Positions 55,838 through 56,008 of a stretch of DNA of 64,000 nt are shown piece by piece (within the stretch, counting starts at the first letter, position 1; the number at the start of each line of letters is the position of its first letter). This DNA is from Escherichia coli. Lineage in GTDB: Bacteria > Pseudomonadota > Gammaproteobacteria > Enterobacterales > Enterobacteriaceae. The stretch lies in the NCBI RefSeq assembly GCF_002854065.1, contig NZ_CP024147.1. One strand, given 5' to 3'. The notes under the pieces were generated by a model. It was given only the letters and a program-made list of their open reading frames with translations, searched no databases and had not been told where the DNA came from. The translations under genes were made by a program, and so were the position numbers.

Positions 55838-55869
55838 AAAGAAAAAGGGGTTAGCATTTAGCTAACCCC
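55838..55869 (-). terminator. Rho-independent terminator of tRNA-Ser
   Basis: GGGGTTAGC-n-GCTAACCCC hairpin followed on the minus strand by T5CT4. Confidence 0.6.
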
Positions 55870-55879
55870 TTATCTTATC

Positions 55880-55967
55880 TGGCGGAAGCGCAGAGATTCG
55901 AACTCTGGAACCCTTTCGGGTCGCCGGTTTTCAAGACCGGTGCCTTCAACCGCTCGGCCACACTTCC
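55880..55967 (-). tRNA. serT: tRNA-Ser (anticodon UGA), 88 nt with long variable arm and encoded CCA
   Basis: Minus strand reads GGAAGTGTGGCCGAGCGGTTGAAGGCACCGGTCTTGAAAACCGGCGACCCGAAAGGGTTCCAGAGTTCGAATCTCTGCGCTTCCGCCA. Confidence 0.95.
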
Positions 55968-55979
55968 GGAATGACGTGC

Positions 55980-56008
55980 ACTATAAACATCCCGATGCGG
56001 CGTGTAAA
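55980..56008 (-). promoter_or_regulatory. serT promoter, near-consensus sigma70 elements
   Basis: Minus strand: -35 TTTACA, 17-bp spacer, -10 TATAGT, then GC-rich discriminator just upstream of the tRNA 5' end. Confidence 0.55.

Follow-up and report, generated by a model that had tools for sequence, protein, structure and literature searches.

The serT locus of Escherichia coli: a tRNA-Ser(UGA) gene with an apparent promoter and terminator of its own and a vacant prophage attachment site

The question raised by the short stretch between yccA and hyaA on this Escherichia coli chromosome is whether its tRNA gene forms a compact unit of its own, or whether it is transcribed together with yccA or marks the edge of a genomic island. 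The window (the whole stretch of DNA that was analysed, 64 kb in length) had been described beforehand from its letters, and this preliminary description proposed a self-contained tRNA-Ser(UGA) unit without an island. The analysis presented here supports that proposal and places the unit in the canonical yccA-serT-hyaA setting. There is very little doubt that the locus is serT, the single-copy tRNA-Ser(UGA) gene of E. coli, forming a monocistronic stable-RNA unit with its own promoter and terminator. Both the unit and its role in prophage attachment are already known, and the locus is an ordinary one.

The tRNA gene was identified with ARAGORN, the tRNA-finder check that had been set beforehand, as a tRNA-Ser with the anticodon tga at position 35 of the tRNA; it is the sole tRNA in the window. 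The Rfam model RF00005 matches the same minus-strand sequence from 55967 to 55883 (score 57.5 bits, gathering threshold 29; E = 8.4e-10; full-length match to model positions 1-71). Both programs thus find the 88-nt gene with an encoded CCA where it had been placed. The sequence has the features of a class II tRNA-Ser, these being a UGA anticodon, a long variable arm that appears as a 14-nt insertion in the Rfam alignment (stem-loop GACCC-GAAA-GGGUU) and a 3′ end of GCCA, made up of a G discriminator base and the CCA. The minimum free energy (MFE) fold of the tRNA alone gave no clean cloverleaf (z = -1.29, not significant), which is usual for tRNAs folded as single sequences, the covariance model being the relevant test. 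To our knowledge this is the only tRNA reading UCA. The product of serT is tRNA-Ser(cmo5UGA) (bioRxiv 10.1101/2024.04.04.588050).

For comparison with relatives, one genome per species was scanned for exact matches to the first 44 nt (5′ end) of the tRNA. This gave 86 loci, from which 87 copies of the tRNA were extracted, making 88 with that of the window. The 88-nt tRNA is identical in 63 of these 88 copies, among them E. coli, E. albertii, Salmonella and Klebsiella. Its assignment as the serT orthologue is supported by identity to the tRNA of two E. coli loci (L023, L030) and by the same position with respect to yccA and hyaA. All but one of 5426 complete E. coli genomes (5425) match the 901 bp around serT, with yccA, tRNA-Ser and hyaA annotated there, and in 4661 of the 5426 yccA-serT-hyaA is present in one piece.

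The window itself is core E. coli chromosome, with mukF, ompF, pyrD, ompA and helD followed by yccA-serT-hyaABCDEF-appCB. The start codon of yccA (ATG at 55673) lies on the same strand as serT and past its 3′ end, while hyaA (ATG at 56393) is divergent and begins 425 nt from the tRNA 5′ end. The flanks had been said to run straight into yccA and hya with neither an integrase nor a direct repeat, and the open reading frames (ORFs) and a repeat search of the 64 kb confirm this. The coordinates of the features are collected in Table 1.

Table 1. Features of the serT locus and its immediate neighbours in the 64-kb window.
Feature	Position	Strand	Basis
yccA (FtsH protease modulator), 219-aa ORF, context	55014..55673	-	ORF list; annotation of relatives
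Direct repeat GTAAAgatggGTAAA before yccA, context outside the tRNA unit	55744..55758	-	single match in the 64 kb
Terminator T-run TTTCTTTT	55837..55844	-	sequence, terminator scan
Intrinsic terminator hairpin	55845..55871	-	terminator scan; fold z = -5.93; hairpin in 73/78 loci
serT, tRNA-Ser(UGA), 88 nt	55880..55967	-	ARAGORN, Rfam; RefSeq annotation of relatives as tRNA-Ser
Vacant prophage attachment site, tRNA nt 29-88	55880..55939	-	strain 611 junction; phage Evi attP
Discriminator GCACGTC and short 5′ leader	55968..55979	-	sequence; start predicted from spacing
-10 hexamer TATAGT	55980..55985	-	promoter scan; 9-mer GTTTATAGT invariant in 66 distinct sequences
17-bp spacer	55986..56002	-	length invariant; sequence variable in its 5′ two-thirds
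-35 hexamer TTTACA	56003..56008	-	promoter scan; invariant in 66 distinct upstream sequences
Conserved A/T-rich block TTGGCTGTTTTTCAGGCAAACAAACAAATTAGGGG, candidate UP element or activator site	56009..56043	-	alignment of 66 sequences
hyaA (hydrogenase 1 small subunit), context	56393..57511	+	ORF; CUWW06 annotated start 16394 = window 56393

With respect to reference genomes the window is collinear save for one 1.33-kb IS2 about 32 kb from serT. This element (22588-23918, with an InsC-like ORF at 22634-23044 and an InsD-like ORF at 23002-23907) interrupts elfC (ycbS), a fimbrial usher gene, and is missing from the closest genomes. Its junction is covered in 3 of 5426 genomes, each time by two separated BLAST pieces joined together, and these three genomes may not hold the same insertion. 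A PyrD leader is also present directly upstream of pyrD (28943-29016, plus strand, Rfam 97.9 bits), an expected and known element. The closest genomes, those of strains CUWW06 and 100416, have 11-12 differences from the window over positions 40000-64000 (24 kb). An origin of the window from Shigella or from a divergent clade, under which private single-nucleotide changes would be trivial, was rejected, as two E. coli genomes match it this closely.

The tRNA is followed 8 nt downstream of its CCA by a hairpin (AAGGGGTTAGC-TAAAT-GCTAACCCCTT) with an 11-bp stem containing 6 G-C pairs and a 5-nt loop, which is in turn followed by TTTCTTTT. The GC hairpin and T-run of the preliminary description are therefore present, and they have the form of an intrinsic terminator, namely a G+C-rich hairpin directly before a U-tract. 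Its MFE is -21.6 kcal/mol compared with -7.8 +/- 2.3 in shuffled sequences (z = -5.93), and none of 200 shuffles folded as well. The terminator scan taken alone is at chance level, reporting 2 sites in 2 kb with about 2 expected. Among relatives, where a terminator was taken to be a hairpin of dG <= -9 kcal/mol and a T-rich tail lying no more than 60 nt past the CCA, 73 of 78 loci across Enterobacteriaceae have one, and these comprise 54 distinct hairpin sequences. As the structure is kept while its sequence changes, the terminator is under selection. The five exceptions consist of two loci with a tandem second tRNA-Ser (L028, L031) and three that share one common foreign trailer (L010, L033, L072).

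The tandem arrangement is an observation in its own right. In both Cedecea sp. (L028) and an Enterobacteriaceae MAG (L031) the two tRNA-Ser(UGA) genes are separated by about 50 nt in which there is no terminator. Duplications of serT have also been described as compensatory mutations in a Salmonella preprint.

As only 206 nt separate the tRNA 3′ end from the yccA start codon on the same strand, it could be argued that serT and yccA form one operon, in which yccA would be expressed by read-through from the tRNA promoter, the hairpin serving for processing or attenuation instead of full termination. This arrangement is considered improbable. Against it stand the high stability of the terminator, its U-tract and the conservation of its structure across genera. 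In addition, the insertion of prophages between the two genes, for which about 14% of complete E. coli genomes is an upper bound, is tolerated, so that expression of yccA cannot depend on the serT promoter. The region between terminator and yccA also possesses a perfect GTAAA-N5-GTAAA repeat, GTAAAgatggGTAAA, some 75 nt before the start codon of yccA, with one match in the 64-kb window where 0.10 would be expected, and this suggests a regulated promoter belonging to yccA. The repeat resembles a CpxR-type box, which would fit an envelope-stress promoter for this gene. Given this sole repeat and the common insertion of prophages between the genes, yccA probably has its own promoter.

Upstream of serT the promoter scan identified TTTACA, a 17-bp spacer and TATAGT, as had been read from the letters, with 10 of 12 consensus matches. 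The mature 5′ G of the tRNA (55967) lies 12 nt after the -10, and the arrangement is that of a sigma-70 promoter, with a -35 and a -10 at 16-18 bp just upstream of the transcript. A match of this kind is, by itself, at the level of chance, as promoter-like sites in 2 kb are as frequent as in shuffled sequences (2 versus 2.0 expected). This lends some weight to the view that it is a fortuitous resemblance and that the true promoter lies elsewhere. However, that view is very improbable in light of the relatives. The elements TTTACA-N17-TATAGT are found 8-14 nt from the tRNA 5′ end in 78 of the 88 copies, essentially those of Enterobacteriaceae, and the -35 hexamer and the 9-mer GTTTATAGT are 100% conserved in 66 distinct upstream sequences of this family. 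The spacer is always 17 bp, whereas its sequence occurs in 49 distinct forms among the 78 loci, and its columns are 30-80% conserved in the 66 distinct sequences save for the invariant last three bases (GTT) before the -10. The distant Orbaceae (three genomes; L007, L020, L055) share the same architecture, having kept TTTACA-17-TAATAT in surrounding sequence that is unrelated. For promoter and terminator alike, it is position and conservation across genera, not the scans, that make the matches significant. Since hexamers and 17-bp spacing are invariant while the spacer varies, the promoter, like the terminator, is under selection across Enterobacteriaceae as judged from these alignments.

Two further elements of the upstream region are shared with the relatives. 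A T-run and GGCAAAC, 20-35 nt upstream of the -35, form columns that are 70-100% conserved in the 66 distinct Enterobacteriaceae sequences, and the A/T-rich block in which they lie may serve as an UP element or as a site for an activator. The sequence after the -10 has the Enterobacteriaceae consensus GCGCCTCA (66 distinct sequences). Its discriminator is G+C-rich, as in stringently controlled stable-RNA promoters, with 5 of 7 positions G or C in the window (GCACGTC), 6 of 7 in the closest E. coli (GCGCGTC) and 6 of 7 in the family consensus (GCGCCTC). A literature search found nothing specific on a mapped serT promoter or transcription start site.

From these elements a working of the unit can be proposed. 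Judging by spacing, sigma-70 RNA polymerase would start at A55972 or C55973, 7-8 nt after the -10, with the conserved A/T-rich upstream block probably aiding initiation. The G+C-rich discriminator may confer growth-rate and stringent control of the type seen with rRNA and tRNA genes. The resulting 5-6 nt leader would be removed by RNase P. Transcription would end in the U-tract at about 55837-55842 after the GC hairpin, and the trailer, about 40 nt long, would be shortened by 3′ exonucleases as far as the encoded CCA.

The discriminator also carries a change that is private to the window. On the minus strand the third base past the -10 (55977) is an A, while every other sequence compared has a G, and in this column the window is the sole departure among the 66 distinct Enterobacteriaceae promoters. 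The exact 71-nt promoter of the window occurs in no complete E. coli genome. A 31-mer centred on the A allele was found in none of the 5426 complete E. coli genomes; this is not a failure of sensitivity, since the 31-mer with the G allele was found in 5266 genomes under the same search settings. Over the 24 kb compared there are seven positions which differ from both of the closest genomes, and two of these, 55977 and 56085, fall within the 425 bp between serT and hyaA. The A at 55977 may be an error of assembly, or else a private mutation that is either neutral or mildly regulatory. A genuine regulatory mutation, as opposed to a neutral change or a sequencing error, is unlikely. With A instead of G, regulation may differ slightly from that of the canonical promoter; if regulatory, the change could weaken stringent or growth-rate control or raise serT expression. 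It is a minor curiosity, which matters only if shown to alter expression of the tRNA.

tRNA genes had been noted in the preliminary description as frequent sites of island integration, and this holds for serT itself. The yccA-serT-hyaA locus is split 43 bp past the tRNA 3′ end in about 14% of complete E. coli genomes, a figure that is an upper bound for prophage occupancy, three of the split genomes having been opened. The low-ranked matches of split genomes all break at query position 337-338, corresponding to about 55837 in the window, just past the terminator. In all three opened genomes (O157:H7 strains 8368 and 611, and mouse strain M6) a lambdoid prophage lies between yccA and serT. Strain 8368 shows the serT-side prophage end with sodC, tccP2 and an espV fragment, while in strain 611 a tyrosine integrase adjoins yccA (L004, 6782-7801), starting about 140 nt past the junction. 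The hyaA-side junctions break at about 55837. At the yccA-side junction of strain 611 the sequence is the same as that of the window up to 55939 and is prophage sequence thereafter, so that the element duplicates tRNA nt 29-88 (60 nt, from the anticodon stem to the CCA), and it brings its own variant hairpin. In a collection of sequenced phages there were four weak matches to the tRNA and its trailer, of which only phage Evi gave an attP; this runs from tRNA nt 29 and lies next to its integrase. The literature assigns Sp4 of O157:H7 Sakai, together with Stx2e, Stx2k and Stx2a phages, to 'yccA', and names serT as a prophage site in O121:H19 (PMC10925052, PMC9431244, PMC8767318).

Short paired repeats, different from one group to another, are also found directly past the serT terminator in many genera of Enterobacteriaceae. 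These are pairs of TTGGTATA (L013, L017, L021, L037, L042, L043, L052), of AGAATA (L032, L034, L035, L063, L071, L074) and of TTAGAA (L041, L044, L045). Such repeats are probably arm-type integrase sites of resident elements, which, if true, would make serT an integration hotspot for several integrase lineages across Enterobacteriaceae. Another kind of disruption beside serT was seen in E. coli CRE287 (L005), which has an IS4 inside yccA (3998-6096); for this reason too the 14% of split genomes is an upper bound for prophages.

In the window the site is empty. The search for a duplicated tRNA 3′ end revealed no partial tRNA repeat and no second copy in the 64 kb, whether with a 24-mer allowing 3 mismatches or a 16-mer allowing 2. 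There is no integrase ORF in the window, serT being flanked only by yccA and hyaA, and the arm-type paired repeats of occupied loci are absent after its terminator. The trailer is of the chromosomal Escherichia type (GGGGTTAGC...) and not of the phage type, in which GGGGTTACC...GGTAGCCCC precedes TTGGTATA repeats. The attB is thus vacant, and the 3′ 60 nt of serT are an unoccupied lambdoid site of the Sp4 type. An occupied island was rejected, as a direct repeat of the tRNA 3′ part and an adjacent integrase were both tested for and neither was found. Elements integrate at serT often, in E. coli as in other genera, yet the least probable reading of all is that the gene here borders a genomic island or decayed prophage, against which stand the results above, a gene order in the flanks that is the same as in unoccupied E. 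coli genomes, and 55 kb of core genes on the yccA side, a span over which a copy of nt 29-88 with an integrase is excluded.

The locus as a whole matters little, serT being a textbook gene whose use for prophage attachment is in the literature. What is of use is a clean and checked annotation, in which promoter and terminator are seen from comparison across Enterobacteriaceae to be under selection. The free attB for Sp4-type and some Stx-converting phages is relevant only to the tracking of prophage content or lysogenisation potential.

The nearest known counterpart is serT of E. coli K-12, where the order of the genes is identical. The 901-bp locus agrees with K-12 records at 98.9% and its part from yccA to the tRNA at 99.7%, and the window differs from K-12 serT only by the A for G at 55977 and the private change at 56085. 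Like rrnB P1 and tyrT, which are stable-RNA sigma-70 promoters under growth-rate and stringent control, serT combines -35 and -10 hexamers close to the consensus with an A/T-rich block upstream and a G+C-rich discriminator directly after the -10. The consensus of the serT family, GCGCCTCA, resembles the rrnB P1 discriminator GCGCCACC, whereas the spacer of serT is 17 bp compared with 16 bp in rrnB P1; the discriminator of the window is one G-C pair poorer than those of all its relatives. In Salmonella, a sister genus in which pathogenicity island 5 adjoins serT, the same tRNA gene is an island landmark, whereas the window is without an island. The Salmonella loci L035 and L074 have, unlike the window, a different trailer followed by paired AGAATA repeats. 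Genomes with Sp4-type occupancy carry a duplicate of nt 29-88 and an integrase beside yccA, whereas the window has one core copy and no integrase. Sp4 of O157:H7 and the Stx2e, Stx2k and Stx2a phages assigned to 'yccA' or 'serT' occupy the same chromosomal position as the empty site of the window.
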